Part shown: positions 14,367 to 56,791 of the stretch, one piece after another | Layout: every line of letters starts with the position of its first letter | Position numbering within the stretch: position 1 is the stretch's first letter | Assembly (NCBI GenBank): GCA_043797085.1 | Contig: JAZDQA010000008.1 | Span: 64,001-128,000 of the forward strand | From: Pseudomonadota bacterium | GTDB lineage: Bacteria; Campylobacterota; Campylobacteria; Campylobacterales; Sulfurimonadaceae | Direction: 5' to 3' | Length of the DNA stretch: 64,000 nucleotides | Program-made: the position numbers and the translations under genes | The notes under the pieces: generated by a model | Told to the model about the DNA's origin: nothing | The model's database searches: none | What the model saw: only the letters and a program-made list of their open reading frames with translations

Positions 14367-14459
14367 AGCGGTTACCTTATTGTTGTATGGTTGTTTATTT
14401 TAGGTGAAATCATCTTAAATACTCTCAAGAATAAGGGGTATAGTAGTAAATCCAATTTT

Positions 14460-14475
14460 TGGAACTGTTTTTGCT
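14460..14475 (+). promoter_or_regulatory. Canonical sigma54 promoter (GG-N10-GC) upstream of the M15 peptidase gene
   Basis: TGGAAC-TGTTT-TTGCT, matching the Campylobacterota flagellar sigma54 consensus. Confidence 0.7.
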
Positions 14476-14557
14476 AAATTTTAAAAGCTAAAATCCGATA
14501 GTATTAAAAATAGATTTTTTATAATACATTTTACAGAATGATGAAGGAAAATGAAGA

Positions 14558-15313
14558 GTGGACAGAAGAACGTTTTTAACACTAAGTGCACTGACCGCTT
14601 CGAGTCCTCTCTTTGGAATAAGGGAAGAGATAGATTTGGCCGAAAAAAGAAAAGGTGCAAATAGTCTTGTTACTTCGCTTTTAAAAAAACTTATTATTGT
14701 GCAAAATCAAGTCGGCTATGTTCAGTTTAACATTTTAAGTTTTGATGATTTATTGAAAACAGCAGCACAGTGCAAAAAACCGCTTCAGCCTGAGGAAATT
14801 GATTATATTGAATCGATCTTTTATGGTGATCCGCGAAAATATGGTTTTTATGGAGAGAGAACCGTTCCTGAACTTACCGTAGTAACACCTAAAAAAGATG
14901 TTATTTATATGGATAAAACAGGACATTTTCTGATGAAGGGAGCAGCCAGTGAAAAATTTGCCCAAATTAAACGTCTGATTGGTCCCGATCTTGTTCTCAC
15001 ATCGGGCGTACGTGCTCCTGTTAAACAGCTTTATCTTTTTTTGAAAAAAATGGAGTATGCGGGCGGTGATTTACGCCTCACTTCTAACTCCATAGCTCCT
15101 CCCGGCTTTACATTCCACAGTGTCGGTGATTTTGATATTGGTAAAGCGGGATACGGACATTTTAATTTTACCGATAAATTCCAAGAAACAGATGTTTTCA
15201 AAAAGCTTTATGACGGCGGATACATATCTATTCGTTACACATCCAATAATCCATACGGTGTTCGATTTGAACCGTGGCATATCAAGGTCACAGGCGGTTT
15301 TGAGACGGCTTAA
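14558..15313 (+). CDS. Tat-exported M15 (VanY-like) D-Ala-D-Ala carboxypeptidase family protein
   Basis: RRTFL twin-arginine signal; TSGVR, APPGFTFH..GDFD, EPWH. Confidence 0.82.
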   Translation: MDRRTFLTLSALTASSPLFGIREEIDLAEKRKGANSLVTSLLKKLIIVQNQVGYVQFNILSFDDLLKTAAQCKKPLQPEEIDYIESIFYGDPRKYGFYGERTVPELTVVTPKKDVIYMDKTGHFLMKGAASEKFAQIKRLIGPDLVLTSGVRAPVKQLYLFLKKMEYAGGDLRLTSNSIAPPGFTFHSVGDFDIGKAGYGHFNFTDKFQETDVFKKLYDGGYISIRYTSNNPYGVRFEPWHIKVTGGFETA

Positions 15314-19300: not shown

Positions 19301-19395
19301 AAAAATCCTTTTGTATGATTTTAAATTTTCTTAAAGCTATTAACGAATTATACCGAACAATTAATGGCAAAAAAATAGGATACAAATACCCCCTC

Positions 19396-19411
19396 TCGCA
19401 CAAATCTTGCA
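19396..19411 (+). promoter_or_regulatory. Non-canonical sigma54-type promoter for the nifN operon
   Basis: TCGCAC-AAATC-TTGCA (CG-N10-GC), ending 26 nt before ATG 19438. Confidence 0.7.
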
Positions 19412-19437
19412 ATACAACTTTTAATCAAGGAGTTGCC

Positions 19438-20736
19438 ATGGAATTCTCCCTCAGCAAACACGAACATAAGCCTCTTCAAGTCAACCCGATCAAACACTCT
19501 CAGCCTATGGGAGCGACGCTTGCATTTTTAGGGGTAAAGGATTGTATGCCTCTTATGCATGGTGCTCAGGGGTGTGCGTCGTATACAAAGGTCTTTTTTA
19601 CCCGACATTTCAACGAACCTATCGCGATTAACAACACCTCGGTGAGCGACATCACTGCCGTTTTGGACGGTGGAGATTACTCGATATTGATGGCGATTGA
19701 GAATATCCAAAACAAAGAGAAAAACCTCAAACCCTCTATGATCGGTCTACATACGACAGGATTGACGGAGACTAAAGGGGATGATGTGCGCGGTGTGGGG
19801 ATGCATATTGAGATTCCGTATGTGTTTGTCAATACTCCCGATTATGAGGGGGGGATGGAGAGTGGCTGGGCGCTTACAGTGAGCGCGATGATCGAACAGC
19901 TCACTGTTTCTGCTACCGAGACCAAACCAAATAAACTCGTATTTCTTCCCCATTTGAGTACGCAACCGATTGAGGTGGAGAAGATCAAAGCGATGTGTGA
20001 GGATTTCGGGTTTGAGACCTACGCGCTCCCTGATCTTTCGACTTCACTGGACGGGTATTGGGAAGCGGGGCAGGGGAAACTCTCTAACGGCGGGATAACG
20101 GTCGATCAGATTCGTGATTTAGCCTCCTCTAGCGTTGTGGTCTCTATCGGTGCATCGATGAAAAAAGCGGCTTTGGCACTCCAAAAAAAGAACCCTGCGA
20201 TTGAACATATCCATTTTGATCATTTGATGGGATTGGATGGGTGCGACAATTTTGTAAGTGCATTGATGAAAATCCGACAAGATGAGCCAAAACCGATGAT
20301 AAAGCGGTGGCGTTCACGTTTGCAAGATGCGATGCTCGATTCGCACTTTCTCATCGGGAGTTCCCATTTCGTCATCACGGGTGAACCGGATATGCTGGCG
20401 GGAATGTGTGCGTTGATACGCAGTGTCGGCGGAACCATCGATGCAGCGGTATCTACGACGTTTAGTGATTCGCTGCATCTGATCGAAGCGGAGAATATTT
20501 TCGTTGGGGATTTGGAAGATGCACGACGCTTTTTTGATAAAGCGGATATGGTGATCAGTAATTTTCATGCAGAACGAATCTTGCATAGTTATCACGATAC
20601 GGCATTGGTAATACGAGGTTTCCCCAATTATGAAGAGTTAGGGAATCAGCTTAAAAACGATCAGCTGTATGAGGGAAGTACGTACTTTTTATTTGAAATA
20701 GCCAATGCACTCAGAAAGGTCAAACATGAACACTAA
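19438..20736 (+). CDS. nifN: Nitrogenase FeMo-cofactor scaffold beta subunit NifN
   Basis: NPIKHSQPMGA, HGAQGCASY, RHFNEPI; RBS AAGGAG before ATG 19438 (ORF track start is further upstream). Confidence 0.93.
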   Translation: MEFSLSKHEHKPLQVNPIKHSQPMGATLAFLGVKDCMPLMHGAQGCASYTKVFFTRHFNEPIAINNTSVSDITAVLDGGDYSILMAIENIQNKEKNLKPSMIGLHTTGLTETKGDDVRGVGMHIEIPYVFVNTPDYEGGMESGWALTVSAMIEQLTVSATETKPNKLVFLPHLSTQPIEVEKIKAMCEDFGFETYALPDLSTSLDGYWEAGQGKLSNGGITVDQIRDLASSSVVVSIGASMKKAALALQKKNPAIEHIHFDHLMGLDGCDNFVSALMKIRQDEPKPMIKRWRSRLQDAMLDSHFLIGSSHFVITGEPDMLAGMCALIRSVGGTIDAAVSTTFSDSLHLIEAENIFVGDLEDARRFFDKADMVISNFHAERILHSYHDTALVIRGFPNYEELGNQLKNDQLYEGSTYFLFEIANALRKVKHEH

Positions 20737-21178
20737 AATCACAATAGAGGGAAATGACATGATGGATAGCGCTTTGCGAGTTGCTTTTGCAACCAAAGAT
20801 ATGGAAGAGATCAACGCCCACTTCGGAGGGGCAAAAGAGTTTGTGGTGTACAACGTTTCTAAAGACGGTTATGAAGTTTCTGAGGTGATTAAAACCGACA
20901 GTACTGATCCCGAGGATGATGATAAAACCGATTATCGTGTTCGTGCATTGAAAGGTGTCAACATCATGTACTGCGAGAGTATCGGCGGTACGGCGGCGGC
21001 AAAAGTGATCCGTGCAGGGATTCATCCGATGAAAGTGAGTGAATCAACGTTAATCGAAGATGTCCTCAAGACTTTAGTAGGAATGATTAATGGCAATCCG
21101 CCACCGTGGATAAAACAGATTATACAAATGAAAACCGAACACGATGTTCGACAAGACCGATGGGCAGTGGGCGAATGA
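20726..21178 (+). CDS. nifX: FeMo-co carrier protein NifX
   Basis: RVAFAT, INAHFG, IGGTAAAKVIRAGIHP, PPPW; follows nifN. Confidence 0.9.
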   Translation: MNTKITIEGNDMMDSALRVAFATKDMEEINAHFGGAKEFVVYNVSKDGYEVSEVIKTDSTDPEDDDKTDYRVRALKGVNIMYCESIGGTAAAKVIRAGIHPMKVSESTLIEDVLKTLVGMINGNPPPWIKQIIQMKTEHDVRQDRWAVGE

Positions 21179-21190
21179 TAAATGAGCATT

Positions 21191-21253
21191 GGGCTTCCTG
21201 CCGAAGGAAACTCAGCGTTAGCGTAGTCAAGAGGGGCTTAGCTCCTTTGGCGT
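21191..21253. other. GC-rich double-hairpin intergenic element
   Basis: TTCCT-GCCGA-AGGAA and AGGGGC-TTA-GCTCCT stems between nifX and the DUF269 gene. Confidence 0.4.
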
Positions 21254-21275
21254 ATAAAAATTAAAGGTAATAATT

Positions 21276-21731
21276 ATGGAAGCAGAAAAAACAATGAATC
21301 CTTTTGGTGTGGAACTTATCCGCCAAATCCGTGCGCTTGATCAGTTTGGAAATTGGGCAAAAATTACGGATGATGAATTACTCATCAAGAAATACGTCAA
21401 GACCAAAGAGGAGCTAAAAGCCGTTCCTGTAATCGCGGATATTGATGAGATGATGATAAATGACATCAAAATGATCTACAAAGCGATTGCATTATCGTTC
21501 GAGCGCCAAACGGGTGTTGTGTGCAATGTTATCATGGAGATGAGCCATGAGGGATTTGGTCGATGCGCGGTTCTTACAGATCGTATTTGTATCGTGGACA
21601 AGTATTTTAAAGATGCACACCGTTTTAGCTTTCGTACCCTTGACGCATTGTTCGAAGAAGGGGACAAAAATTTGGCTAAAGCGATTGCAATCTATGAACA
21701 ATTTAAACCATGTAATGGTCAACAGGGGTAA
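21276..21731 (+). CDS. NifX-associated nitrogen fixation protein (DUF269)
   Basis: RALDQFG, SHEGFGR, DAHRFSF motifs; position after nifX. Confidence 0.88.
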   Translation: MEAEKTMNPFGVELIRQIRALDQFGNWAKITDDELLIKKYVKTKEELKAVPVIADIDEMMINDIKMIYKAIALSFERQTGVVCNVIMEMSHEGFGRCAVLTDRICIVDKYFKDAHRFSFRTLDALFEEGDKNLAKAIAIYEQFKPCNGQQG

Positions 21732-21734
21732 AAA

Positions 21735-22250
21735 ATGGCAACAATAGGTATATTTTTCGGTAGCAGCAGTGGAGTGACGCGGGGAGCGGCAGAGCTTTTG
21801 TCTGAACAACTTTCAGGTTCTGAATTGATAGATATGGAAGAAGATTTTGACGGGATTGAGCAGTTTGAGGAGTTTGATGTTCTTCTCCTTGGTTCTTCCA
21901 CATGGGGGCAGGGTGATCCGCAACGCGACTGGGTTGATCCGTTATATGATCTTGGGAACGACACTCCTGATCTTAGCGGTAAAAAAGTAGCTTTTTTCGG
22001 TGCCGGTGATCAGAAGACGCACGGGGAACATTTTCTAAGCGCTCTTGGAAAAATGCATGATTTGTTTGTATCTTTGGGTGCGCAAGCGTATGGATTTACC
22101 TCTACCGATGGATATGACTATAAATATTCTCTAGCCGAGCGTGACGGGAAATTTTGCGGGCTTGGAATCGATGATGTGAACCAAGAAGATTTGACCGAAG
22201 AACGTGTTGTCGGTTGGGCAAACCAGCTCAAAATTGAGATGGGATTATAA
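21735..22250 (+). CDS. Long-chain flavodoxin (NifF/FldA-like electron donor)
   Basis: GSSSGVT, STWGQG, FGAGDQ, GLGID. Confidence 0.9.
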   Translation: MATIGIFFGSSSGVTRGAAELLSEQLSGSELIDMEEDFDGIEQFEEFDVLLLGSSTWGQGDPQRDWVDPLYDLGNDTPDLSGKKVAFFGAGDQKTHGEHFLSALGKMHDLFVSLGAQAYGFTSTDGYDYKYSLAERDGKFCGLGIDDVNQEDLTEERVVGWANQLKIEMGL

Positions 22251-22260
22251 GGAGATTACG

Positions 22261-22635
22261 ATGGGAACGTTAAACGAATTTCAACATATTACAGACACTG
22301 AGGAGTTTTTCGAGTTTTTCGATTTGGCATACGATGAGCGTCTTGTAAATTCAAAACGGTTTCATATCATGAAAAAATTTGGTGAAATGGTCGAAAAATC
22401 CAAAGGTCATGATATGGGCAGTGATGAAAAATTACTTGAGTTCTATAAATTTGCTCTCATCAGTGTGTATAAAAATTTTGAAAACGGTTACAGCCCATCT
22501 GCTGCCGATGTTTGGGAAATGTTTGATAAACCCAGCGGATGCGGTACATGTGCAACGTCCACAAGTTGTAATGATGTAGAGGAGGTGAGTCATGGAGTCC
22601 ATGCCTGTACAAGCCAAGCCACAATTACATTCTGA
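22261..22635 (+). CDS. nifW: Nitrogenase-stabilizing protein NifW
   Basis: EEFFEFFDLAYD..LVNSKRFHIMKKF; RBS AAGGAG before ATG 22261. Confidence 0.85.
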   Translation: MGTLNEFQHITDTEEFFEFFDLAYDERLVNSKRFHIMKKFGEMVEKSKGHDMGSDEKLLEFYKFALISVYKNFENGYSPSAADVWEMFDKPSGCGTCATSTSCNDVEEVSHGVHACTSQATITF

Positions 22636-23038
22636 AGAAGAGATGCCTATCAATGATGAGGCACGAAAAACCAATCTCTATAAGATGTCAACCAAAGATG
22701 AGATTTTATCTCTCTACCGAGTCGGACAGAGGGTTCGATTGGTAAAAGCGATACGAAATGACGGAACCTATCCGCATGCTGGGGTTGGTGATACTCTCGT
22801 TGAGGCAGGGTCAGAGGGTTATGTTCGTAAAATCGGTGATTTTTTACAGACAATTCGAGTATATGAAGTGAACTTTATCGAAGAGGGTTTGACCTTCGGA
22901 TGCCGTGAAGCGGAACTGGAAAGTGCACTCGAAGACGACGGATACGATGAGGTCGCCGAAGAGCTGCAATGGCTCAAAGAACATCGTGCGCAACGTGCCG
23001 CAGAAAAATTGGCGCAATCTCAAGAAGAGGGGGAATAA
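22592..23038 (+). CDS. nifZ: Nitrogenase maturation protein NifZ
   Basis: GQRVR..IRNDGTYP..G..GYV..IGDFLQ..GCREAEL. Confidence 0.9.
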   Translation: MESMPVQAKPQLHSEEEMPINDEARKTNLYKMSTKDEILSLYRVGQRVRLVKAIRNDGTYPHAGVGDTLVEAGSEGYVRKIGDFLQTIRVYEVNFIEEGLTFGCREAELESALEDDGYDEVAEELQWLKEHRAQRAAEKLAQSQEEGE

Positions 23039-23125
23039 TATCGACTCTTCTGAGATTTTTGCATATCGTATCAAGATGAATTGGTGCCCTTGGGGCTAAA
23101 TAATGTAATTAACAAAGGAGTTGGG

Positions 23126-23416
23126 ATGACAACACGTGTAGAAATTATAAATGACTTTTTGGCAATCAACGTCATACCGGGTAAAACGATTCAAGATATC
23201 GTTGAAGCATCGGGAAGTGCATTGCCGTTTGGCTGTCGTGATGGCGAATGCGGTACTTGTGTAGTGATGATCGAATCAGGGATGGAGTTCATGAGCCCTA
23301 TCAATGATAAAGAAAAAGCGGTGCTTAAAACAGTGGGTGAAACCAGTGCAAAAGCACGTCTTGCTTGTCAAATGAAAGTTATCGCCCCAAATGGATTGGT
23401 ACGGGTTAAATATTAA
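23126..23416 (+). CDS. [2Fe-2S] ferredoxin
   Basis: CRDGECGTC and RLACQ; RBS AAGGAG before ATG 23126. Confidence 0.9.
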   Translation: MTTRVEIINDFLAINVIPGKTIQDIVEASGSALPFGCRDGECGTCVVMIESGMEFMSPINDKEKAVLKTVGETSAKARLACQMKVIAPNGLVRVKY

Positions 23417-23436: not shown

Positions 23437-23511
23437 GTCATTCCGTGCTACGACACGGAATCCAGTGCTCTTAAATCCAGGAGATGGATCCCGTATCAAG
23501 TACGGGATGAC
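23437..23511. repeat. REP-like inverted palindrome pair
   Basis: GTCATTCCGTG..CACGGAATCC, spacer, GGATCCCGTA..TACGGGATGAC. Confidence 0.85.
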
Positions 23512-23570: not shown

Positions 23571-23586
23571 GAGAACAAAATATGCA
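23571..23586 (+). promoter_or_regulatory. Non-canonical sigma54-type promoter upstream of rpoN
   Basis: GAGAAC-AAAAT-ATGCA (AG-N10-GC). Confidence 0.68.
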
Positions 23587-23624
23587 GTCTCTTGGATAGA
23601 TTTATAGATTTTAGGTGGATTATT

Positions 23625-24890
23625 ATGCAAACAACTCTCTCTTATAAACAAAAACAACTCCCACGACTTTCGATGCAGACATGGCTTCCATTGTTGCAAT
23701 GTTCCCTCAATGATCTTGAAAAACATTTACAAGTTATAACCAATGAAAATCCATGTATAGAGATGAAATCAGGTTTTGAAGAGTCCAATGCACAAGCAGG
23801 AGGTGCATCGGCGTACGGTGCATTTCAAAACTATGTTTCGAATGCTTCGAGTGATCAGATTGAATGGCTTAGTATCTCTTCGACTTCATTGTATGAAAAA
23901 CTGGATGAGCAAATTGTAGCACCACTTTTTCCAACCCCAATATCTCAAAAAATTGCTCGACAGATCATCTATTACATCAGTGATGAGGGATATTTTGAGG
24001 GAAATGTGGAAGAGATCGCCCAGCAATGTGATACGGATTCTCATACGGTTGAGCGTGTACGTCAACGGTTTGCGCATTTAGAGCCTTCCGGCGTGGGAGC
24101 GTGTGATTACAAAGAGTCCTTTTTGTTTCAGCTCAATGATTATGAACTGGATGATGATTTGAGTATCTTGCTCTCTGCTATGATTTTACAGTTCGATAAG
24201 ATGGAGAAATTTATCAAAAACCCTCGTTTTGGAGATGCAAAACACGTACTGCAACATCTCAAAAATCCTCCGGCGTTGGAATACATGGAGCCTGAAACGC
24301 AAATTATTCCTGATTTATTTGTCGAGTTTTCAGGATCGGAGTTGAACATTCGGATTAATCATACTTTTTATCCCGATTTAAAAGTCAGTATGATCGATAA
24401 GTACGATAATTTTGCCAAACAAAAATTCAAAGAGGCACGCGAACTCGTCAAACTTCTCGATTTGCGCAAAGCAACTCTCTATAACGTTGCCTTGGTATTG
24501 ATCGAGAAACAGTACAGCTTTTTTATGGGAGGAGAACTTAAACCGCTTCGCCTCCAAGATGTTGCCGATGAACTGGGCTTTAATGAATCCACGATTTCCA
24601 GAGCAATTTCGGATAAATACATGCAAACTGAGCGAGGGTTGTATCCCTTTAAAGATTTTTTCTCCAACTGCATCGGAGAAGTATCGACTTCAGAGATTAA
24701 ACACTTTTTGAAACGGCTTGTTTTGAGTGAAAATAAAGATGATCCGTTTAGTGATAAAACACTGCATGAGATGATCGAAGAGCGATTTGGGGTAAAAATG
24801 GTACGACGGCTTATTGCTAAATATCGTCAAGAACTTGATATTCCATCGTATAAAGAACGATTGTTTTTATATAAGCTAGAGCTGCTTTAA
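23625..24890 (+). CDS. rpoN: RNA polymerase sigma54 factor, nif-linked, with variant RpoN box
   Basis: Q/L-rich region I, ENP, EPSGVGA, HTH LKPLRLQDVADELGFNESTISRA, PFSD, RpoN box VRRLIAKYR; likely start ATG 23625. Confidence 0.93.
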   Translation: MQTTLSYKQKQLPRLSMQTWLPLLQCSLNDLEKHLQVITNENPCIEMKSGFEESNAQAGGASAYGAFQNYVSNASSDQIEWLSISSTSLYEKLDEQIVAPLFPTPISQKIARQIIYYISDEGYFEGNVEEIAQQCDTDSHTVERVRQRFAHLEPSGVGACDYKESFLFQLNDYELDDDLSILLSAMILQFDKMEKFIKNPRFGDAKHVLQHLKNPPALEYMEPETQIIPDLFVEFSGSELNIRINHTFYPDLKVSMIDKYDNFAKQKFKEARELVKLLDLRKATLYNVALVLIEKQYSFFMGGELKPLRLQDVADELGFNESTISRAISDKYMQTERGLYPFKDFFSNCIGEVSTSEIKHFLKRLVLSENKDDPFSDKTLHEMIEERFGVKMVRRLIAKYRQELDIPSYKERLFLYKLELL

Positions 24891-25103
24891 ACGCGCACAA
24901 CTTCCTCTATTTCTACTTCTACAACAGCTATTTCGCTGTTGTAATTATAAGACACAAGAACTTCTTTTTGTAATCATCCTGCAACATTTACTTCTATAAA
25001 CATAGCTATATCACAATTGTGATTTTTTTGTGATACTTTAACAATAAGATTGCTGAAATTTGAAAGTCTCTGAAATCACACATAATGCATAGAGGTAGTA
25101 AAA

Positions 25104-25490
25104 ATGGCAAAAAGAGTAATAATCGTCGATGATTCCAGAGCAGTAGTTGCGACGGCAGAATTAGCACTGGATGGGTTGATTAGCAGTGGTGTGATCGAGT
25201 TTAAATCGTATTTGAATCCATTGGAGTTATTGGGTGCATTGCAAGCGGGAAACGAGAATTTCGATCTGCTCATCAGCGATGTTAATATGCCTGAGATGAA
25301 TGGTTTGGATTTGGCGCGATTGATTAAAGCCGATGATCGATACAAAACAAAACCCATCATTATTTTGACTACCGAAAGTTCAGAACAGATGAAAATGGTC
25401 GGTAAAGAGATCGGAGTTACAGGATGGATGGTCAAGCCTTTTAGTGAAGAGAAGCTGGTGAAATCCCTCAAAATGGTATTGGGGGTATAG
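25104..25490 (+). CDS. cheY: Chemotaxis response regulator CheY
   Basis: Single REC domain: VDD, DVNMP, LTTE, VKPF. Confidence 0.88.
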   Translation: MAKRVIIVDDSRAVVATAELALDGLISSGVIEFKSYLNPLELLGALQAGNENFDLLISDVNMPEMNGLDLARLIKADDRYKTKPIIILTTESSEQMKMVGKEIGVTGWMVKPFSEEKLVKSLKMVLGV

Positions 25491-25492
25491 CA

Positions 25493-25990
25493 ATGGAGTC
25501 CAATATCGTCCAGTCACGAAAGGAACGCTACCTCACTTTTTTCCTAGGAGAGGAACAATACGGAATCTCAATCGATCGGATCAAAGAGATCATTGCGATG
25601 ATGAAAGTGACTCAAGTGCCTAAAACTCCCCACTATATGCGTGGCGTGATCAATTTGCGCGGATCCATCATCCCAGTAGTGGATACTCGTCTTCGTTTTG
25701 GGATGGAGCCGCAAGAAGAAACGATGCACACGGCAATCATCATTGTCGAAGTGGAAAAAGTAAATATTGGATTTATCGTGGATCGTGTCGAAGAGGTTGC
25801 CTCTATCGATACGGCACGTTTGAGTGAGCCTCCGAAATTTGGCAGTCATATCGATACTGATTTCATTTGCGCTATGGCCCAGATCGAAGAAAATGTTGTG
25901 ATGATTTTGGATGTAATCAAGCTTTTTGAAGCCGATGAGTTGGTGAGTTTAGAACAAATACAGCAAATACAAATGCGTGAGGGAGAATGA
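25493..25990 (+). CDS. cheW: Chemotaxis coupling protein CheW
   Basis: YLTFFL, GVINLRGSIIPVVD, GFIVDRV. Confidence 0.93.
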   Translation: MESNIVQSRKERYLTFFLGEEQYGISIDRIKEIIAMMKVTQVPKTPHYMRGVINLRGSIIPVVDTRLRFGMEPQEETMHTAIIIVEVEKVNIGFIVDRVEEVASIDTARLSEPPKFGSHIDTDFICAMAQIEENVVMILDVIKLFEADELVSLEQIQQIQMREGE

Positions 25991-25991
25991 G

Positions 25992-27629
25992 ATGAATTGG
26001 TTAGAAAATATGGTGCTACAAACTAAATTGGTATTATTAACCGCAGTTATGATGATTGCTCTTGCTACGTTAGGGTATTTGGGGTACAGTACAACACAAA
26101 AATGGGAAAGTGGAATCACAGAAGTAGGGGGAGTAAAGCTTCCATCTATCGTTGGTATCATGGAAATGCGTACGGGGATCAATCAAGTAGTGATTCAGCA
26201 AAATCGTGTACGAGCACTTAAAGATGATCCAATGATGAACGCAAAGCTTGAAGATGCTCGCGAAAAGCTTGTTAAAGGATTTGAGCGGTTTGACAAAGGG
26301 TATAAAATTTATGCACCGCTTCCGCAAACGCCCGAAGAGGCTATCGAGTGGAAAAGTTTTGAAGAAAATTTTGGTAAATGGAAAGAAATGAGTTTATCGT
26401 TTCGTGCCAATACTCTGGTTCCTTTGATAAACAATACCGATCCGGCAATGGTAGATGTCTATTTCGAGCAAATGAAAGAGTTTATTGAATCAAGCCGTGC
26501 TCCTCGTCAGGCGGCATTGGAAAGTATGGATAAAATCGCTAAGATTAATATTGATGGTGCAGATGCAGCGGTTAAGACGGCACAAAAAGATTCAAGCAGT
26601 GCGGTACAAATGACCATTCTAATCATCCTTATTTCTTTTGCAATATCGATACTATTGGCAATACTGATCATTCGTTCCATTACCCGCTCTATCACATCAA
26701 GCGTTACTTCTATCCGTGATGGCGCGATGCAAATCACTTCGGCTTCCGATCAAGTAGCTGCATCGTCTTCCTCTCTTGCACAAGGTGCCAGTGAACAAGC
26801 GTCAAGCGTTGAAGAGGTAAGTGCAACATTAGAAGAGAGTACGGCGATCAATACACAAAATACCGATAACGCACGTCAAGCCGATATTTTGGCTAAAAAT
26901 GCCAATGATTCTGCACGTGCAGGATTTGAAAAAGGGGAACAGCTTTCTCGTTCCATGCACGCTATTACCGATTCAGCGGCAAAAATATCAGGAATCATAA
27001 AAACTATCGATCAAATCGCATTCCAAACCAATCTTTTGGCGCTCAATGCAGCCGTTGAAGCGGCGCGTGCGGGTGAACATGGTTTGGGCTTTGCCGTTGT
27101 AGCTGATGAAGTGCGTAATCTCGCACAACGTGCGGCATCTGCAGCAAAAGAGACCTCGGTGATTATCGAAGAGGTTGTCTCTCAGATCAAAGAGGGAAAT
27201 CAAATCGCCCTCGCAACCCATACATCATTCCAAGAAATTGTCGAACAGTCGAAAAAAGTGTCTAATCTTATAGGTGAAATCGCCATTGCCGGTAAAGAAC
27301 AAGCAGAGGGTATGACCCAAATCAATCAAGCTATGGGGCAAGTCGATCAAGTGACACAGCAAGTTGCTGCAAACTCGGAAGAAGCCGCTGCGGCTGCTGA
27401 AGAGCTTAATGCTCAAGCTACTTCGATGATGGAAACTGTACGAATACTTGCTCAAATGGTTGGAATGACAACAGATGCTCCAGCAACAAAAGCAAAACCG
27501 CTCCGTCATTTAGAGATGAAAGCTCCAGTAGCTCAACGTAGAACTATGAATATTCCTCAAAGCAGAGGCTCTTCCACTAAAGCGGATGATATTTTTCCTC
27601 TCCATGAAGATGATTTGAAAGAGTTCTAA
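25992..27629 (+). CDS. Methyl-accepting chemotaxis protein (four-helix-bundle-like sensor, short signalling domain, acidic C-terminal DLKEF)
   Basis: Two TM helices; IAFQTNLLALNAAVEAARAGEHG.GFAVVADEVR. Confidence 0.93.
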   Translation: MNWLENMVLQTKLVLLTAVMMIALATLGYLGYSTTQKWESGITEVGGVKLPSIVGIMEMRTGINQVVIQQNRVRALKDDPMMNAKLEDAREKLVKGFERFDKGYKIYAPLPQTPEEAIEWKSFEENFGKWKEMSLSFRANTLVPLINNTDPAMVDVYFEQMKEFIESSRAPRQAALESMDKIAKINIDGADAAVKTAQKDSSSAVQMTILIILISFAISILLAILIIRSITRSITSSVTSIRDGAMQITSASDQVAASSSSLAQGASEQASSVEEVSATLEESTAINTQNTDNARQADILAKNANDSARAGFEKGEQLSRSMHAITDSAAKISGIIKTIDQIAFQTNLLALNAAVEAARAGEHGLGFAVVADEVRNLAQRAASAAKETSVIIEEVVSQIKEGNQIALATHTSFQEIVEQSKKVSNLIGEIAIAGKEQAEGMTQINQAMGQVDQVTQQVAANSEEAAAAAEELNAQATSMMETVRILAQMVGMTTDAPATKAKPLRHLEMKAPVAQRRTMNIPQSRGSSTKADDIFPLHEDDLKEF

Positions 27630-27630
27630 G

Positions 27631-27894
27631 ATGCAATTCGACGGAGATGTCCTCACGATAGGATTGGATATGTCGATGGAAGAGATTCGAGAGTTTGAAG
27701 AGTTTGTTCGACCTCGTTTGGAGTATATAGAAACCATTGAAGCCGAAGATGGGACGCAGCTGCGAAACAGTGCATTGTTAGCACTGTTGATGAGTTTAAA
27801 ACGGACAAAAAAAGAGCTGAAAATACCTTTTATCGAACGTGGTGAAGCAGCTTCGGCTGCTTACGGAACGTTGCATTGGATGTGTCATGACTAA
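27631..27894 (+). CDS. Small chemosensory-operon protein (STAS-like by position)
   Basis: 87 aa, tightly coupled between MCP and cheA. Confidence 0.55.
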   Translation: MQFDGDVLTIGLDMSMEEIREFEEFVRPRLEYIETIEAEDGTQLRNSALLALLMSLKRTKKELKIPFIERGEAASAAYGTLHWMCHD

Positions 27895-29965: not shown

Positions 29966-30776
29966 GTTAAAACCGGAAGAATTTGCACTTTTTCGTCGTT
30001 ATATTTATGACAAAGTCGGAATCGCATTATCTGAACAAAAAAGTACATTGGTAAAAGGACGGCTGAACAAACGGCTCAATCAGTTGGGTTTACACTCATT
30101 CCGTGCTTACTATGATTATTTGATCGTGGAGGAATCGGGCGAAGAATTAGCATTGTTTATCAATGCCATCTCGACCAATGTCACCTCCTTTTTCCGTGAA
30201 GGGGCGCAATGGAAATGGCTGGAAACGTATTTGCCCGCACTCATTGCGTCAAAGCGGGAGAAAAAAATTCGTATCTGGTCGGCTGGATGTTCCAGTGGTG
30301 AAGAACCTTATACTATTTTGATGTTTTTACAGCATCATTTGAGTGATTTCGAGCAATGGGATATTAAGATTTTGGCAACCGATATCTCGGCTAAAGTCCT
30401 CTCAAAAGCCATTGCAGGCAAGTATGATGCCAAGCAAGTAGAATCGCTTTCTAAAGAGATTCTCCATCGTGCCTTTGATAAAGTAAAAACCCAACAAGGT
30501 TTGACGTATCAGATAGCACCTCATTTACGCCAGAAAGTTCTGTTTCGTCTTTACAATCTGGTAACCGATCCATTTTTTTTCAAAAATAAATTTGACATGG
30601 TTTTTTGCCGTAATGTGATGATTTACTTTGATGATACGACCCGTCATGAACTAATCGGCCGTTTTACCACGGTATTGCCAAAAGGAGCTCCTCTTTTTCT
30701 AGGGAGTTCCGAATCTTTGACCACCCATCGCGAGACACTAAAGCTTTTGGGTTCGTCGATCTATCAACGTTTATAA
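29952..30776 (+). CDS. cheR: Chemotaxis methyltransferase CheR
   Basis: TNVTSFFRE, WSAGCSSGEEPY, CRNVMIYF. Confidence 0.95.
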   Translation: MVEIELKPEEFALFRRYIYDKVGIALSEQKSTLVKGRLNKRLNQLGLHSFRAYYDYLIVEESGEELALFINAISTNVTSFFREGAQWKWLETYLPALIASKREKKIRIWSAGCSSGEEPYTILMFLQHHLSDFEQWDIKILATDISAKVLSKAIAGKYDAKQVESLSKEILHRAFDKVKTQQGLTYQIAPHLRQKVLFRLYNLVTDPFFFKNKFDMVFCRNVMIYFDDTTRHELIGRFTTVLPKGAPLFLGSSESLTTHRETLKLLGSSIYQRL

Positions 30777-40330: not shown

Positions 40331-40726
40331 CTAGCTCGATGGTGTATCAACCGCCGTATAGAATGTATTGGTTTTAGACGTCGTTCGTGGTGCGGGTTGT
40401 GCTAGGGCTGTTTCATCTTTTTCTCCTGTACGGATACGTTCCACTTCCAGTACCGGTGTGACCCACATTTTACCGGCACCGTGACCCAAGTCTTGTGTGT
40501 GTGCTCGAATACATTCCATCGCAGTTGCTTTATGTGCATCATCAGAGACAACGATTAAAAGCATCACTTTTGGGAACAAATCGGGTGCGTTGTTTTTCTC
40601 CGCGATTCCCAGTGATCCTTTTCCGACAACATCCATGACGGTAACCCCTTCGATCTCATTATCAAAAAGCTCTCGTAATACATCATTAAGACAGTGACGG
40701 TTGAAAACGGCTGTAATTTGAAACAT
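40331..40726 (-). CDS. P-II family nitrogen regulatory protein (atypical T-loop)
   Basis: GVTV..V.GKG, PKV, GAGKMWV.PV...RIRTGE. Confidence 0.85.
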   Translation of the reverse strand: MFQITAVFNRHCLNDVLRELFDNEIEGVTVMDVVGKGSLGIAEKNNAPDLFPKVMLLIVVSDDAHKATAMECIRAHTQDLGHGAGKMWVTPVLEVERIRTGEKDETALAQPAPRTTSKTNTFYTAVDTPSS

Positions 40727-40762: not shown

Positions 40763-40778
40763 TGCATATTTTGTTCTC
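40763..40778 (-). promoter_or_regulatory. Non-canonical sigma54-type promoter for the P-II gene
   Basis: Minus strand GAGAAC-AAAAT-ATGCA, identical to the rpoN site. Confidence 0.7.
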
Positions 40779-40912: not shown

Positions 40913-40948
40913 AGCGATCAAGGTTGATGACGCTTGGTATTATTAGTC

Positions 40949-40964
40949 AAGAACACCATTTGCA
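40949..40964 (+). promoter_or_regulatory. Non-canonical sigma54-type promoter for the nifU operon
   Basis: AAGAAC-ACCAT-TTGCA (AG-N10-GC). Confidence 0.7.
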
Positions 40965-41000
40965 ATATGTCGGATAATATCATCCATCAAGGAGCAATCA

Positions 41001-47103: not shown

Positions 47104-48078
47104 ATGACTACAGAGATAGTTCCTATTACGCACGCAACACAAGTTGGTACCCTTTTTGATGAGAATTATGTGTGCGGTATTTTTGATGGTGATGTGATAC
47201 TGCAAAAAGTCTTAGAATATATTGCATACAACAGTTCGGATACGGTTATTATTACACAAAAGTCTTCTGCAGTAGGTATTCTGACACAAAAAGATATCTT
47301 ACGAGCACTTTGTAATTTTGATAATACCGGTCTTCCTGTTAAAGATTTTATGACTTCTCCCCTTCATACTTATGATGCGTCAATGAGTATTTCAGATGTT
47401 TTAGATGCTATTGACGTGACTGATTATAATAAAATTGTTGTCATAAAAGATAAACATATCATGGGTATAATCGATAAGCGTGATCTTCACTCTATATGTT
47501 ATGCTCAGTTGAACCCTTTAATCAAACACGAGTACAACATGATTCATTCATTGATGGATTTAGTCGGTGAGGGTGAGCGTGGATTGCTCAAAATGGCAAC
47601 AACGGATGTACTAACCGGAATCGGAAATCGACGATTGTTTGAAGAAATCATGCAAGCACATCAATCATTAGGTAATAGGTACGATGTGCCATTATTTTTA
47701 CTTTTATTTGATATTGATAATTTCAAAAGTATCAATGATACCTTTGGTCATAATGTAGGGGATTCTGTTCTAAAAGAATTAGTGGTTTTGGTGGAAAAAT
47801 CGATTCGTAAATCGGATATTTTTATTCGTTGGGGCGGGGAAGAATTTGCGATTTTGCTCCGTTATACGGAGCCAATGACGGTTATGAAAATTGCCGATCA
47901 AATTCGTAGTCGGATTGATAAAAATAGTTTTGAAACGATTGTTCACGTAACGTGCAGTTTTGGTTTAACATCGATTTTACCTAATGAAACTCTTGAAAGT
48001 ATATTTGAACGTGCCGATAAGGCACTTTATCGAGCAAAATCAGACGGTAAGAATGTCGTGCGAATGGAACTTCCTTAG
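47104..48078 (+). CDS. CBS-pair GGDEF diguanylate cyclase (paralog of the previous gene)
   Basis: Same architecture; RKSD and RWGGEEF. Confidence 0.88.
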   Translation: MTTEIVPITHATQVGTLFDENYVCGIFDGDVILQKVLEYIAYNSSDTVIITQKSSAVGILTQKDILRALCNFDNTGLPVKDFMTSPLHTYDASMSISDVLDAIDVTDYNKIVVIKDKHIMGIIDKRDLHSICYAQLNPLIKHEYNMIHSLMDLVGEGERGLLKMATTDVLTGIGNRRLFEEIMQAHQSLGNRYDVPLFLLLFDIDNFKSINDTFGHNVGDSVLKELVVLVEKSIRKSDIFIRWGGEEFAILLRYTEPMTVMKIADQIRSRIDKNSFETIVHVTCSFGLTSILPNETLESIFERADKALYRAKSDGKNVVRMELP

Positions 48079-49703
48079 ACGTCTATCCCGTACTGCTTGA
48101 TCTTATACCCGATTTGTCGAGCTGTCATTCCTAGTAATCGTGCCGCTTTGGTCTGAATACCGTGTGAATCTATTAATGCCTGAACAATCGACTCTTTTTC
48201 CAATTCCAAAAGGCTCTTTTTGGTCATTGGTGCACCACTTTCGTGAGTGGGTTGCGGTGCAGGAGTTGTAATGTACACCGGTGGTGCTATCGTTGGTACT
48301 TCCGGCTGCATGTAGAGCTTTTGGTAGTTAAACGGCAATACATGATTGAGCATCTCCGGCTGAAGCTCTCCGTCGGGACAGATGAGAACGATTCGCTCCA
48401 TAGTATTTTGAAGTTCTCTGATATTTCCCGGCCACGGATATTCTAACAATACCTCCATAGCCCCTTTGGTAAAAGACATATTTTTGCGATGTTCTTTCAT
48501 AAAGCGGTGGAGATAGTGCTCAATGAGCAATTTTACGTCCTCATAGCGCTCACGAAGCGGAGGAAGATTGAGAGGGATGACGTTAAGGCGATAAAACAGG
48601 TCTTCTCGAAATTCACCTTTGCGTACCATATCTTCGAGATTACGGTTGGTAGCGGCAACGAGGCGGACGTTGGTTTTGATCGTTTTGTTCCCGCCTACAC
48701 GCTCAAACTCCTGCTCTTGCAAAATACGCAGTAATTTTACTTGGAGAGAGGGGGTAATGTCTCCGATCTCATCGAGAAACAGTGTCCCGCCATCGGCGAG
48801 TTCAAATCGTCCTTTTCTCAGTTCTCTCGCATCAGTAAAGGCTCCCTTCTCATGTCCGAAGAGTTCGGATTCGAGGAGTGTTTCGCTGATAGCAGCACAG
48901 TTGAGTTTGATAAACGGTCCGTTTTGACGACGGCTGAGATTATGAACCGCTGTGGCGATAAGCTCTTTACCCGTACCCGTTTCACCACGTATAAGAATAG
49001 TTGCATCAGTGGGTGCGACGGTATTGATCATCCCAAATACATGTTGCATTTTGGTACTTTTTCCGACAATATTTTCAAATTTGTAATCTTTTTGCATCTC
49101 TTCTTTGTAGTACGTTTTGAGTTCAGTGAGAGACTCTTTTTCTTTGGTAATGGTTTGCTGAACTTTCATCGAGCCTACGAAAAGTGTTCCGACTATGGTG
49201 AGCATTCGGACGATTTCGTCGAAATCCAAAGGGCTTTTTTTCCCGATATTCGCCGAAATAACCCCGATTACTTCTTCGTCTTGGAGTAGGGGAACCGCGA
49301 CGTAGGAGACCATTTGCGTCGAAATATGCCCCATTTTATTGAGATAATTGATGTTGTTATGGATGTTTTCGATCACGATAGGTTCACGGCTTTTCGCCGC
49401 TAATCCCGTAGCTCCTTCACCGAAACGGTAGGTTGCCATTTTCTTTTGATGCGATTCAAGGTCGATGGAAATGAGAAGCTCAAGCTCATCTTTATCCTCT
49501 TTCTTTTTGAAAAGAGCACACCGTTCGACATAGCCATGCTGTTTGAGTTTTCGCATAGATTTTTCGATACTTTCATGAATATCGACAGTACTCGTAAGAA
49601 TGACAGCGATTTCATACAGTAAATTAATCTCTTTGTACGCAAATGTCAGTGCACAGGTCTGACATTCTTCTCTATTAGGGATATTGGGGCTGTAAGTCAT
49701 CAT
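48075..49703 (-). CDS. nifA: Nif-specific sigma54 enhancer-binding activator NifA (GAF-AAA+-HTH)
   Basis: GAF domain, GETGTGKE, ESELFGHEKGAFTDA, WPGNIREL, HTH QTKAARLLGMTARQIGY. Confidence 0.9.
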   Translation of the reverse strand: MMTYSPNIPNREECQTCALTFAYKEINLLYEIAVILTSTVDIHESIEKSMRKLKQHGYVERCALFKKKEDKDELELLISIDLESHQKKMATYRFGEGATGLAAKSREPIVIENIHNNINYLNKMGHISTQMVSYVAVPLLQDEEVIGVISANIGKKSPLDFDEIVRMLTIVGTLFVGSMKVQQTITKEKESLTELKTYYKEEMQKDYKFENIVGKSTKMQHVFGMINTVAPTDATILIRGETGTGKELIATAVHNLSRRQNGPFIKLNCAAISETLLESELFGHEKGAFTDARELRKGRFELADGGTLFLDEIGDITPSLQVKLLRILQEQEFERVGGNKTIKTNVRLVAATNRNLEDMVRKGEFREDLFYRLNVIPLNLPPLRERYEDVKLLIEHYLHRFMKEHRKNMSFTKGAMEVLLEYPWPGNIRELQNTMERIVLICPDGELQPEMLNHVLPFNYQKLYMQPEVPTIAPPVYITTPAPQPTHESGAPMTKKSLLELEKESIVQALIDSHGIQTKAARLLGMTARQIGYKIKQYGIDV

Positions 49704-49793
49704 CTTGTAATCTTTTTTATAAGTTATCCCTAATTGTAGTACAAATTATACGAATTAGCATTCAGCATTATGGATAAAAAATAAGCAGTTAAA

Positions 49794-49809
49794 TAGAACA
49801 TTATTTGCA
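49794..49809 (+). promoter_or_regulatory. Non-canonical sigma54-type promoter for the tpx operon
   Basis: TAGAAC-ATTAT-TTGCA (AG-N10-GC). Confidence 0.7.
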
Positions 49810-49842
49810 TCCTATCCAATAAAATTCCGACAAGGAGAAGAA

Positions 49843-50391: not shown

Positions 50392-50405
50392 CTAAGGAGC
50401 GTATC

Positions 50406-50840
50406 ATGGTAGAGCAATATTTGATGTGGTTAAATAATCATAATTTTTCAGGTGAAGATTTGGAAGAAAAAGGATTTAATGGTAATACCCCTTTGCTGTT
50501 AGCAGCCTTGGAAGGCAATGCCATGATGGTATCTCGTTTTATTGAAGCAGGTGCCAATTTGTATGCTATTAATGGTGATTTTAACGGGGTATTATTTAAT
50601 GCCTGTTATTCCAATTGTCCTGAAGTTATCCGAATTTTGATTGATGCCGGTGCAGATATTGATGATACCAATGAAGAGGGGACGACAGCACTTATGTATG
50701 CAGCATCCGCGTCACGCGTTGAGTGTGTGAGCATGTTACTGGCATTGGGTGCTAATACGCAATTGCACAATGAAGATGGATTCAGCGCGATCGAACTGAC
50801 GAGCAATCGTGATGTTTTTCGGCAACTTCGTAGTGCGTGA
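50406..50840 (+). CDS. Ankyrin repeat protein
   Basis: GNTPLLLAA, GTTALMYAA repeats. Confidence 0.88.
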   Translation: MVEQYLMWLNNHNFSGEDLEEKGFNGNTPLLLAALEGNAMMVSRFIEAGANLYAINGDFNGVLFNACYSNCPEVIRILIDAGADIDDTNEEGTTALMYAASASRVECVSMLLALGANTQLHNEDGFSAIELTSNRDVFRQLRSA

Positions 50841-53436: not shown

Positions 53437-53437
53437 C

Positions 53438-53453
53438 TCGAACACATTATGCA
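53438..53453 (+). promoter_or_regulatory. Non-canonical sigma54-type promoter for the flavodiiron gene
   Basis: TCGAAC-ACATT-ATGCA (CG-N10-GC) in a 42-bp intergenic gap. Confidence 0.62.
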
Positions 53454-53478
53454 TTAGAATCTGAAAGACTCTATAAGG

Positions 53479-54714
53479 ATGCTAATGCTCCCCGATATCG
53501 TTGAAATCAGAGACGGTGTCTATTTCACCGGTGCCTTTGACCCTAAAATCCGTACTTTTGACATCATTATGAAAACTGCCAATGGAAGTTCCTATAACAG
53601 TTATGTCGTTCGTGGAAGCGAAGGTGTTGCGGTTATGGATACCGTGAAAAAAGAGTTTTCAGATGATTTTTTTGCTCGACTTGAACGGGTATGCGATTAC
53701 GATGAAATTCGCTACATCGTCCTGCATCATCTTGAGCCTGACCACTCAGGAGCATTAATCGAGCTGATGAAGCGTGCGCCTGAAGCCCAGCTCATTATCT
53801 CAGGACGTGCGGTGATGATGCTTAAGGGAATTATTAAAACGGATATACCTTACGAGATTGCTACAACGGGAAAAATTATTTCACTGGGTGATAAAACTAT
53901 TGAGTTTTTAATGACGCCATTTTTACACTGGCCTGACACGATGAGCAGCTATTTACACGAAGAGAAGCTTCTTTTTAGTGGGGATGTGTTCGGAAGTCAT
54001 TATTATGACGAGCGTCTTTTTGACGATGATGTGGGCGATTTTATGTATGCTTTTCAATACTATTATGACCACATCATGCGCCCTTTTAAACAGCATGTGC
54101 TTAATGCCTTGGAACTGTATCGCAAGTTTGATATAGATATTATCGCACCCTTGCATGGACCCATTTTGCGTACGAATCCGATGAGTTACATCGATAAATA
54201 CGCTTTGTGGAGTTCTCAGTCCAAATTTCGTAAAAATGAACTGGGGATGAAAATGCTCTCGGTGTTTTATATCTCCAGCTATGACAATACGCATAAAATG
54301 GCGGAAAAAGTAACTGAAGGTGCGGATAGTGTTGCAGGAATACGGGCAAGTATGTATGATTTGGCATCATTGGATGAACACAATATGATCACACTGCTCG
54401 AAGAGTCCGATGCCATTATGATCGGTTCTCCTACGATTAATGGGGATGCTGTTAGACCTGCATGGGATTTATTGTCGTGTATGGCGTATTTGGAGAGCAT
54501 CGGTAAAATCGGTGCGACGTTTGGTTCTTATGGATGGACGGGAGAAGCTCCTGAAATGCTGCATGAACGGTTACGCGGGTTGAAATTTCGTGTGCCGTTG
54601 AAACCATTAAAAATCAAGCTGATCCCAACCGAAGAAGAGCTGGAAGGCTGTGTTGTATTTGGACGTGAGATTGCCGAGATTGCGATGGGAAAAATGATTG
54701 AGATAGACCTTTAG
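53479..54714 (+). CDS. fprA: Flavodiiron protein (FprA/NorV-type O2/NO reductase)
   Basis: HLEPDH, LHWPD, SGDVFG, APLHG, flavodoxin domain FGSYGW. Confidence 0.9.
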   Translation: MLMLPDIVEIRDGVYFTGAFDPKIRTFDIIMKTANGSSYNSYVVRGSEGVAVMDTVKKEFSDDFFARLERVCDYDEIRYIVLHHLEPDHSGALIELMKRAPEAQLIISGRAVMMLKGIIKTDIPYEIATTGKIISLGDKTIEFLMTPFLHWPDTMSSYLHEEKLLFSGDVFGSHYYDERLFDDDVGDFMYAFQYYYDHIMRPFKQHVLNALELYRKFDIDIIAPLHGPILRTNPMSYIDKYALWSSQSKFRKNELGMKMLSVFYISSYDNTHKMAEKVTEGADSVAGIRASMYDLASLDEHNMITLLEESDAIMIGSPTINGDAVRPAWDLLSCMAYLESIGKIGATFGSYGWTGEAPEMLHERLRGLKFRVPLKPLKIKLIPTEEELEGCVVFGREIAEIAMGKMIEIDL

Positions 54715-56606: not shown

Positions 56607-56745
56607 GTTTCTCCATTTTATATATTTTACTAATAATTGTATTGTAAATAGTAATATAGCAGATAATTGGAATTTTTTTATACATGAAATAATTTTATTA
56701 ATGATTATTATTTAATCATCTACTGTTTTAGTTCTTATGGAAGAA

Positions 56746-56761
56746 TCGAACAATAATTGCA
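56746..56761 (+). promoter_or_regulatory. Non-canonical sigma54-type promoter for the nifQ operon
   Basis: TCGAAC-AATAA-TTGCA (CG-N10-GC). Confidence 0.7.
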
Positions 56762-56791
56762 TTATTTGTACATATATATGGGAGGAATAGC

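Follow-up and report, generated by a model that had tools for sequence, protein, structure and literature searches.

The closest characterised system to the one described here is that of Cereibacter (Rhodobacter) sphaeroides, with its pairs RpoN1/NifA and RpoN2/FleQ; the sigma-54 paralogs of this bacterium are not interchangeable, and they discriminate via the -11 base of the promoter and the cognate activator, according to the available part of the source (PMC11999139, citing Poggio 2002 and 2006). The present analysis concerns rpoN2, a second sigma-54 gene located next to nif genes in a bacterium of the family Sulfurimonadaceae (Campylobacterota; assembly GCA_043797085.1), within a stretch of 64,000 nucleotides (nt) of contig JAZDQA010000008.1 (positions 64,001 to 128,000), hereinafter the window. 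The RpoN box of the RpoN2 protein carries leucine (residue 396) in the place of threonine, and the first-pass annotation of this DNA took the Thr-to-Leu exchange to be the specificity switch matching the change from GG to AG or CG at the -24 element of the nif promoters. We consider it most likely, with a probability of roughly two in three, that Leu396 represents conservative drift at a relaxed DNA-contact position of the nif-cluster RpoN2 and is not an AG/CG switch.

The GG dinucleotide at -24 is treated as a near-invariant anchor of sigma-54 promoters. Rhizobial nif promoters carry the canonical GG, the rpoN2 gene of Rhizobium etli is NifA-dependent, and the flagellar regulon of Campylobacter and Helicobacter has a TGGAAC-N5-TTGCTT-like consensus. 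In Klebsiella pneumoniae sigma-54, residues D439, T457 and N471 can hydrogen-bond -24 DNA, and the AC457/458 double substitution leaves 2% of the DNA binding, the variant also being unstable in vivo (PMC2715252, available part); two reviews (PMC5095919, PMC6028918) give no residue-to-base contacts in their accessible sections. Engineered Escherichia coli sigma-54 variants R456H, R456Y and R456L read GA, GC and GT at -24, that is, with the second G changed, and nature is discussed as having settled on R456 with TGGCA (PMC12096077, excerpted text). In the literature searched, no nif-type sigma-54 clade and no non-GG nif promoters were described for Campylobacterota or Epsilonproteobacteria, and the search for natural non-GG sigma-54 promoters gave nothing relevant at the level of the listings.

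The rpoN2 gene and the RpoN box of its product

The rpoN2 gene, a nif-cluster sigma-54 paralog of 421 amino acids (aa), occupies positions 23625..24890 of the forward (+) strand of the window. The longest open reading frame (ORF), 23592..24890, opens with TTG at 23592, and the length of the orthologues, 421 aa, indicates that the ATG at 23625 is the probable true start. The protein contains all three sigma-54 domains in Pfam, namely the activator-interacting, core-binding and DNA-binding domains (PF00309, 28.5 bits; PF04963, 108 bits; PF04552, 155 bits; each over the cut-off), and matches TIGR02395 with 318 bits against a cut-off of 277. The RpoN box VRRLIAKYR is encoded in this frame at 24801..24827 (+; GTA CGA CGG CTT ATT GCT AAA TAT CGT), and the codon CTT at 24810-24812 places Leu396 directly after the Arg-Arg pair, as the first-pass annotation had read it. 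In the alignment with K. pneumoniae sigma-54 (7qv9_M), Leu396 corresponds to T457, R394 and R395 to R455 and R456, D377 to D439, Y409 to S470, and K410 to N471. The residue was also correctly placed at the DNA interface, T457 being one of those that can hydrogen-bond -24 DNA (PMC2715252, same part).

The genome encodes one other sigma-54, the housekeeping RpoN1, which is 41% identical to RpoN2 and the gene for which adjoins that of an LptB-like ABC ATPase. The RpoN1 box is VRRTIAKYR, so that the Thr-to-Leu exchange is the sole difference between the two boxes, the Arg-Arg pair and AKYR being kept. For a broader comparison, 401 Campylobacterota genomes were sampled, of which 51 encode nifH, and 79 sigma-54 factors were recovered from these 51. 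The Arg-Arg pair is intact in RpoN2 and in all 79, and RpoN2 accordingly lacks the R456 substitution of the engineered orthogonal class. The -12-binding helix-turn-helix (HTH) segment ESTISRAISDKY (24585..24620, +) had been described as normal; this holds for its STISRA core, unchanged in 79 of 79, and not for Asp330, which is peculiar to the clade of RpoN2.

Judged by comparison with other loci and other sequencing runs, the leucine is real and not a sequencing slip, an eventuality that the first-pass annotation had itself raised. The RRL box recurs in 7 of the 120 best protein clusters and in 11 of 63 species-representative loci, and the Leu codon varies synonymously inside the main Leu clade (CTT, CTG, CTC, TTG). 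The codon at 24810-24812 is covered by contigs from three further runs, two of DNA and one of an RNA library, which show no change there among the differences listed; these contigs do differ from the window at nearby third positions, and 31 further differences lie beyond those listed. Among the public runs compared with the window, at most 0.24 of the sampled words matched. One contig of 152 nt from run X17, a metatranscriptomic library, matches the 3' end of rpoN2 (24788-24935) without any difference, also at the Leu codon; it gives a weak hint of rpoN2 expression, DNA carry-over being possible.

Residue 396 and the promoters beside RpoN2 orthologues

Threonine is absent at this box position from the orthologues of RpoN2 that were compared. 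The 120 best protein clusters have Ser in 92, Val in 21 and Leu in 7 cases, and the 63 species-representative loci have Val in 35, Ser in 16 and Leu in 11, with one unreadable. We scored 54 nifE and nifN promoters beside these orthologues (here and below, all promoters are motif predictions in which transcript ends play no part), and none has GG at -24: 41 have CG, 11 AG and 2 TG. By gene, the 27 nifE promoters comprise 15 with CG, 10 with AG and 2 with TG, and the 27 nifN promoters 26 with CG and 1 with AG. These 54 non-GG promoters stand beside boxes with Leu in 9, Val in 33 and Ser in 12 cases. Because the Val and Ser orthologues are found beside the same AG/CG promoters, Leu is likely not the specificity switch; a Ser box is, furthermore, combined with GG in five genomes. 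The engineered switches argue in the same direction, given that they lie at R456 and concern the second G, whereas both arginines are kept here and the first G differs (PMC12096077, in the text available).

On a tree from which the box column had been left out, the box residue changes state four times, once between Ser and Val and three times from Val to Leu, and the -24 hexamer shows no visible change with the at least three Val-to-Leu events. On this tree, Leu originated from Val at least three times, in a conservative exchange. In 150 representatives of 50%-identity clusters of diverse sigma-54, the position is Thr in 131, Ser in 9, Val in 2 and Ala in 1, with 7 boxes not readable and Leu in none; the rarity of Leu reflects its recent descent from Val within a single genus. 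The variant is scarce outside the clade of RpoN2, and among the 79 factors, non-Thr residues in general occur in none of the 33 housekeeping sigma-54 versus 17 of the 46 nif-type ones. Three rhizobial plasmid sigma-54 copies, two of them beside nifQ, retain Thr.

Two predicted promoter classes in one genome

The genome (2.40 Mb in 14 contigs; G000 in our numbering) has two sigma-54 genes, as judged by two PF04552 matches, and only two true sigma-54 activators, NifA, encoded in the window at 48075..49703 (-; TIGR01817, 526 bits, cut-off 528.85), and a 398-aa FlgR-like protein encoded on contig C7. The rpoN2 gene directly follows, and closes, a cluster of genes for NifN, NifX, a NifX-associated protein, flavodoxin, NifW, NifZ and a 2Fe-2S ferredoxin (nifN to fdx, 19438..23416, +; assigned by NCBIfam, NifZ by Pfam), and the nifN...fdx-rpoN2 order is kept in related loci wherever the flank suffices. 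The description of this gene as nif-linked is therefore upheld: a second sigma-54 gene lies in a nif cluster of a genome that encodes NifA, the arrangement of a dedicated nif sigma-54 paralog.

Upstream of nifH, nifB and nifN are sigma-54-like elements that have the usual TGC at -12 but AG, AG and CG, respectively, in place of GG, so that motif prediction agrees with the promoter change proposed in the first-pass annotation. The nifN promoter, CTCGCAC-aaatc-TTGCAAT (19395..19413, +), with CG at -24, is conserved in 27 related loci at a distance of about 42 nt from nifN. The motif MGMAY-N5-HTGCA has 13 matches in the window compared to 3.9 +/- 1.9 expected, and none of 100 shuffles reaches 13. 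Genome-wide, the well-placed sites (25-80 nt ahead of an ORF) form two classes. The first, [A/C]G[A/C]A[C/T]-N5-xTGCA, comprises about 13 predicted promoters of nif genes, rpoN2 and oxygen-protection genes; these non-GG sites with A at -11 precede nifE, nifN, nifU, nifS, nifB, nifH, nifQ, rpoN2, a peroxiredoxin operon, a flavodiiron gene, ORF 40331..40726 and a clpP operon. The second, TGGAA(C/T)-N5-TTGC-T, has GG at -24 and T at -11 and lies ahead of flagellar genes (TGGAAC-N5-TTGCTT), including those for FliD, a FlgE/F/G-like protein, a flagellin-like protein, FlgH and a rod protein, and of a few envelope genes. In the genome-wide scan, sites with mixed -24/-11 combinations include no nif site and no flagellar site. 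Computationally, the nif genes are thus preceded by a promoter class of their own.

The rpoN2 gene has a predicted promoter of the nif type, GAGAAC-aaaat-ATGCA (23571..23586, +), about 39 nt before the ATG at 23625, which suggests NifA-dependent autoregulation. Upstream of nifH in family f1 (families, genera, genomes and loci are given in our own numbering), repeated (A/T)TGTC motifs and a conserved palindrome, ACAAATTTGT, were noticed by eye.

As far as sequence goes, the bacterium does have a sigma-54 dedicated to nif genes and a variant -24 element throughout the corresponding regulon, and we predict that RpoN2, taken as a whole protein, reads the variant AG/CG promoter class. Those genome-wide promoter predictors and regulon surveys in which GG is a requirement would likely miss the nif regulon in this bacterium.

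Distribution of box residues and promoters across Campylobacterota

The 79 sigma-54 factors split into a housekeeping clade (33 members, all with RRT) and a nif-associated clade (46 members: Thr in 29, Ser in 12, Val in 4 and Leu in 1), each with 100% support in the Shimodaira-Hasegawa approximate likelihood ratio test (SH-aLRT). Members of the nif-associated clade occur across the phylum; the only sigma-54 of families f7 and f4 (loci L130-L145 and L149-L154) belongs to it and is encoded about 1-12 kb from nifH.

We took one clear nifH core promoter per genome, at -42 to -93. AG was found in 12 of the 51 genomes, all in family f1, together with a box containing Leu in 1, Val in 3, Val and Ser (two copies) in 1 and Ser in 6 genomes, the box being unrecovered in 1. 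GG was found in 36 genomes at a score of at least 6, with the addition of G008 at a lower score and G153 by eye, and the one other genome has a sub-threshold nifH-like match with no candidate promoter. Where the nif-type factor has a Thr box, nifH has GG in 29 of 29 genomes. Where the box is Ser, AG is found in 6 genomes (7 counting G365, with its Val and Ser copies) and GG in 5, the latter belonging to genus g6, family f9 and G177. Non-GG is seen only where the RpoN2 paralog clade is present. G219, with AG promoters and seemingly the housekeeping sigma-54 alone, was considered as a counter-example and rejected, the N-terminus of its rpoN2 running off the end of the nif contig; this fragment has its own upstream promoter, TAGAAC-aaaaa-TTGCA. 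G365 (Sulfuricurvum; L120, L170, L187) encodes three sigma-54, a housekeeping one, an RRV nif-type one and a second nif-type one with RRS that groups with a Sulfurimonas sequence.

The most informative contrast is provided by genus g6, represented by two single-contig genomes that are 99-100% complete. The only sigma-54 of g6 is of the RpoN2 type, with an RRS box, and there is one activator; no housekeeping sigma-54, FlgR-type activator or FlgH was found in these genomes. All three g6 nif promoters have GG (nifH GGGAAC, nifB TGGAAT, nifE AGGTAC). The RRS box is shared by genera g2, g4 and g5, which also have RpoN1, a second activator and FlgH; their nifH, nifB and nifE promoters have AG, AG and CG. 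With the same box but different promoters, the -24 state tracks the sigma-54 repertoire and not residue 396. This pattern fits selection against recognition by RpoN1 where RpoN1 is present.

The base before the GG of nifH (loci L086-L115 and L195-L214) is mostly not T in genomes with two sigma-54 (CGG, and RGG in G187/G386): a non-T base is found in 14 of 15 genomes that combine the B2 type with a housekeeping copy, and in 2 of 2 in f9, compared to TGG in 14 of 15 genomes with the nif-type factor alone, all these counts being uncorrected for kinship. A non-T base before GG may represent a second, milder form of insulation.

A probable remodelling of the -24 reading surface

The f1 subclade to which RpoN2 belongs differs from all 65 other sigma-54 at Asp330, Arg364, Lys378, His381, Phe/Tyr409 and Phe414. 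Asp330, near the -12 HTH, is found in the f1 subclade only, the other 65 having Asn, Gly or Ser; position 409 is Phe or Tyr in 14 of 14 subclade members versus Ser in 65 of 65 others; and position 396, mostly Thr elsewhere, is Ser, Val or Leu in the subclade. Lys378 adjoins the equivalent of D439, and Phe/Tyr409 that of N471. Given that D439, T457 and N471 are reported DNA contacts and that clade-specific changes lie beside them, the whole reading surface, rather than one residue, seems to have been remodelled.

Position 413, after KER, is Lys or Arg in 65 of the 66 factors associated with GG and lacks a basic residue in 11 of the 12 associated with AG; as a candidate switch it was rejected, because five Ser-box loci with Lys413 in the 63-locus set still have AG or CG at nifE. 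With Leu396 discounted as the determinant, the surface formed by 378, 396, 409 and 414, along with Asp330, would be the focus for mutagenesis, and not 396 alone.

A possible mechanism and the alternatives

We suggest the following as the best account of these data. RpoN2 together with NifA would read the non-GG/-11A class, and RpoN1 together with the FlgR-like activator would read the GG/-11T class. The non-G base at the first -24 position and A, not T, at -11 would keep the nif promoters from RpoN1, that is, provide insulation. At the first -24 position, RpoN2 would accept any of G, A and C via a remodelled surface common to the Sulfurimonadaceae subclade, for which Lys378, Ser/Val/Leu396, Phe/Tyr409 and Phe414 are proposed; inside this surface, residue 396 would be freed from constraint and drift from Thr to Ser to Val to Leu. 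In its widest form, the proposal is that the Sulfurimonadaceae possess a natural orthogonal sigma-54/promoter pair, in which NifA and a remodelled nif sigma-54 serve a whole regulon with A or C for the first G and A at -11, insulated from the flagellar sigma-54, with GG regained at every examined nif promoter after the loss of the flagellar sigma-54, and with the changes at 396 as a by-product. We offer this wider proposal tentatively and put its chances somewhat below even, that is, lower than those of drift at residue 396 as such.

Several observations weigh against this account. We infer which sigma factor reads which class, and every promoter involved is a motif prediction. In the DNA-binding domain, no convincing residue sets the g6 factor, which reads GG, apart from its sisters, which read AG, so we can only assume that RpoN2 tolerates all three bases (G, A and C). 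Of 11 nif-type promoters, only that of nifB has the canonical NifA site, TGT-N10-ACA, in its upstream region, which lends no support to NifA dependence. The related genomes are non-independent: on the tree, the non-GG state was gained where the f1 subclade begins and reversed in g6, which leaves about two events for the whole GG/non-GG pattern. Both sigma-54 types, moreover, coexist in f11, f9 and G187/G386, yet nifH has GG there. With regard to residue 396 itself, the loss of Thr may have contributed, considering that Thr is found in 131 of the 143 readable diverse boxes, that non-Thr residues are confined to nif-type factors in our sample, and that the Ser-to-Val change requires two base changes; T457 is, moreover, a reported DNA contact, and the AC457/458 variant has 2% binding (PMC2715252, available part).

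These last points recur in two alternatives that give residue 396 a causal role. That the Thr-to-Leu exchange in the recognition helix by itself switches reading to AG/CG would agree with the location of T457 at the DNA interface, where it can form a hydrogen bond (PMC2715252, same limits), with Thr in the housekeeping paralog of the same genome, with the lack of Leu among the 150 diverse representatives and with nif promoters that are indeed non-GG. The promoters of the Val (33) and Ser (12) orthologues are, however, equally non-GG, AG is found at nifH with Ser, Val and Leu boxes alike, and Leu arose from Val at least three times with the -24 hexamer visibly unchanged, so we give this explanation hardly any credence. 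Better placed, although still unlikely, is the possibility that the loss of Thr (to Ser, Val or Leu) is a necessary, permissive part of a multi-residue re-specification together with Lys378, Phe/Tyr409 and Phe414, Leu and Val being later optimisations for A or C. The distribution of non-Thr residues (17 of 46 nif-type versus 0 of 33 housekeeping factors), the preponderance of Thr in the readable diverse boxes (131 of 143) and the clade-specific changes beside all three reported DNA-contact positions are as expected under this explanation, and the first -24 base, A or C in 52 of 54 promoters and T in 2, hints at positive recognition over tolerance. Against it, Ser retains the hydroxyl and is found with GG promoters in g6, f9 and G177, the g6 factor has every clade-specific residue yet three GG promoters, and the only correlated-looking position, 413, failed on the larger set.

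Alternatively, the two sigma-54 factors might not differ in specificity at all: both would bind both classes, AG/CG would weaken the closed complex and so tighten control by NifA, and labour would be split by activator pairing and activator sites. The nif promoters are classically weak sigma-54 binders, and f11 and f9 keep GG despite two sigma-54, both of which would suit such a scheme, as would the partial dependence of specificity in C. sphaeroides on the cognate interaction between the enhancer-binding protein and sigma-54 (PMC11999139, available part). Promoter strength alone is hard to accept as the explanation, though, given that non-GG is regulon-wide (about 13 of 13 sites here, and GG in 0 of 54 in relatives) and that three promoters flip in concert where RpoN1 is absent; the family-wide retention of the paralog in the nif cluster also speaks against this possibility, which we regard as improbable, more so than a permissive loss of Thr. 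Drift at residue 396 within a remodelled nif-type sigma-54 thus remains our preferred reading.

Other promoters and neighbouring genes

The remaining nif genes are dispersed: the window contains nifU, nifQ and nifA; nifS, nifB-nifV and nifH-x-nifD-nifK are found farther along the same contig; and nifE is on contig C3 (G000 C3:19660-21018), with its own AG-type promoter. Genes pdxJ and pdxA, on the opposite strand, precede nifN here (window 19301-19440); in the closest relatives (L023, L024; RpoN2 99% identical), nifE is located about 1.8 kb upstream of nifN. The separation of nifE from nifN in this genome is either a rearrangement or an effect of assembly or binning.

Motif matches of the nif type in the window further include a candidate internal promoter in the 3' end of nifN, upstream of nifX (AGAAC-gaatc-TTGCA; 20571..20585, +), the predicted nifU promoter (CAAGAAC-accat-TTGCAAT; 40948..40966, +) and, divergent from it, that of ORF 40331..40726 (-) (AGAAC-aaaat-ATGCA; 40763..40777, -). 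A predicted peroxiredoxin-operon promoter (ATAGAAC-attat-TTGCATC; 49793..49811, +) is divergent from nifA, another site (CGAAC-acatt-ATGCA; 53439..53453, +) precedes a flavodiiron/flavorubredoxin-like gene (53479..54714), and the predicted nifQ promoter (ATCGAAC-aataa-TTGCATT; 56745..56763, +), with CG at -24, lies before a gene assigned to NifQ by Pfam. As a contrast, a GG-class promoter (TTGGAAC-tgttt-TTGCTAA; 14459..14477, +) is found before a VanY-like ORF (14558..15313). Behind or near nif-type promoters in window 49843-54714 are genes for a thiol peroxidase, an ankyrin-repeat protein, a SagB-like dehydrogenase, alanine dehydrogenase and a flavodiiron protein, likely an oxygen-protection and ammonia-handling branch of the regulon. 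Outside the window, a nif-type promoter lies ahead of the gene upstream of a second clpP-clpX (G000:C8:161483-162360).

Between fdx and rpoN2, two hairpins (23440-23461 and 23488-23508; 23440..23508, +), noticed by eye, are possible terminators. A chemotaxis cluster (cheY, cheW, a gene for a methyl-accepting chemotaxis protein, cheA, cheR) follows immediately after rpoN2 (window 25104-30776), and CheY is encoded directly downstream of rpoN2 only in the two closest loci (L023, L024) among the related loci compared. Genes of the AAA+/VWA type lie behind nifQ (window 57085-59945). Window 2004-7468 encodes a 1426-aa RHS/YD-repeat protein followed by ORFs with no family matches, possibly a polymorphic toxin-immunity locus.

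Implications and comparison with known systems

If correct, the combination of a regulon without the first G, a dedicated paralog and an apparent reversal where the competitor is missing would offer a natural view of two sigma-54 regulons kept apart in one cell; such a system could also complement the engineered R456 variants as a source of components for orthogonal expression under the control of an activator. Like the engineered pairs, which are NifA-activated, the system described here departs from TGGCA at -24 and would be insulated from the native sigma-54; unlike in those pairs, both arginines are intact and A or C stands in the place of the first G (PMC12096077, excerpted text). The natural case would then be a promoter-level exception to the R456/TGGCA rule.

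The rhizobial rpoN2 genes of symbiosis plasmids and islands (R. etli, Mesorhizobium loti; prx-rpoN beside nifQ, nifS or nifW) are likewise second sigma-54 genes amid nif/fix genes. Two rhizobial plasmid loci (L243, L244) have the order peroxiredoxin-rpoN-nifQ, and the window similarly has a peroxiredoxin operon and nifQ under predicted nif-type promoters. In contrast to RpoN2 of the window, however, the rhizobial copies keep ARRTVAKYR or ARRTVTKYR. The RpoN-FlgR flagellar regulon of Campylobacter and Helicobacter is matched in this genome by RpoN1 (VRRTIAKYR), the 398-aa FlgR-like activator and the TGGAAC-N5-TTGCTT promoters; it thus corresponds to the RpoN1 side, against which the nif promoters are apparently insulated, and not to rpoN2.

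As in C. sphaeroides, where RpoN1 serves nif genes with NifA and RpoN2 serves flagellar genes with FleQ/FleT, the two paralogs would divide nif from flagella, each with its own activator, and the two promoter classes differ at -11, with A in the nif and T in the flagellar promoters. Unlike in C. sphaeroides, the bacterium belongs to the phylum Campylobacterota, and the -24 dinucleotide differs between the predicted promoter classes as well (AG/CG versus GG), a feature of which no description was found in the available part of PMC11999139.

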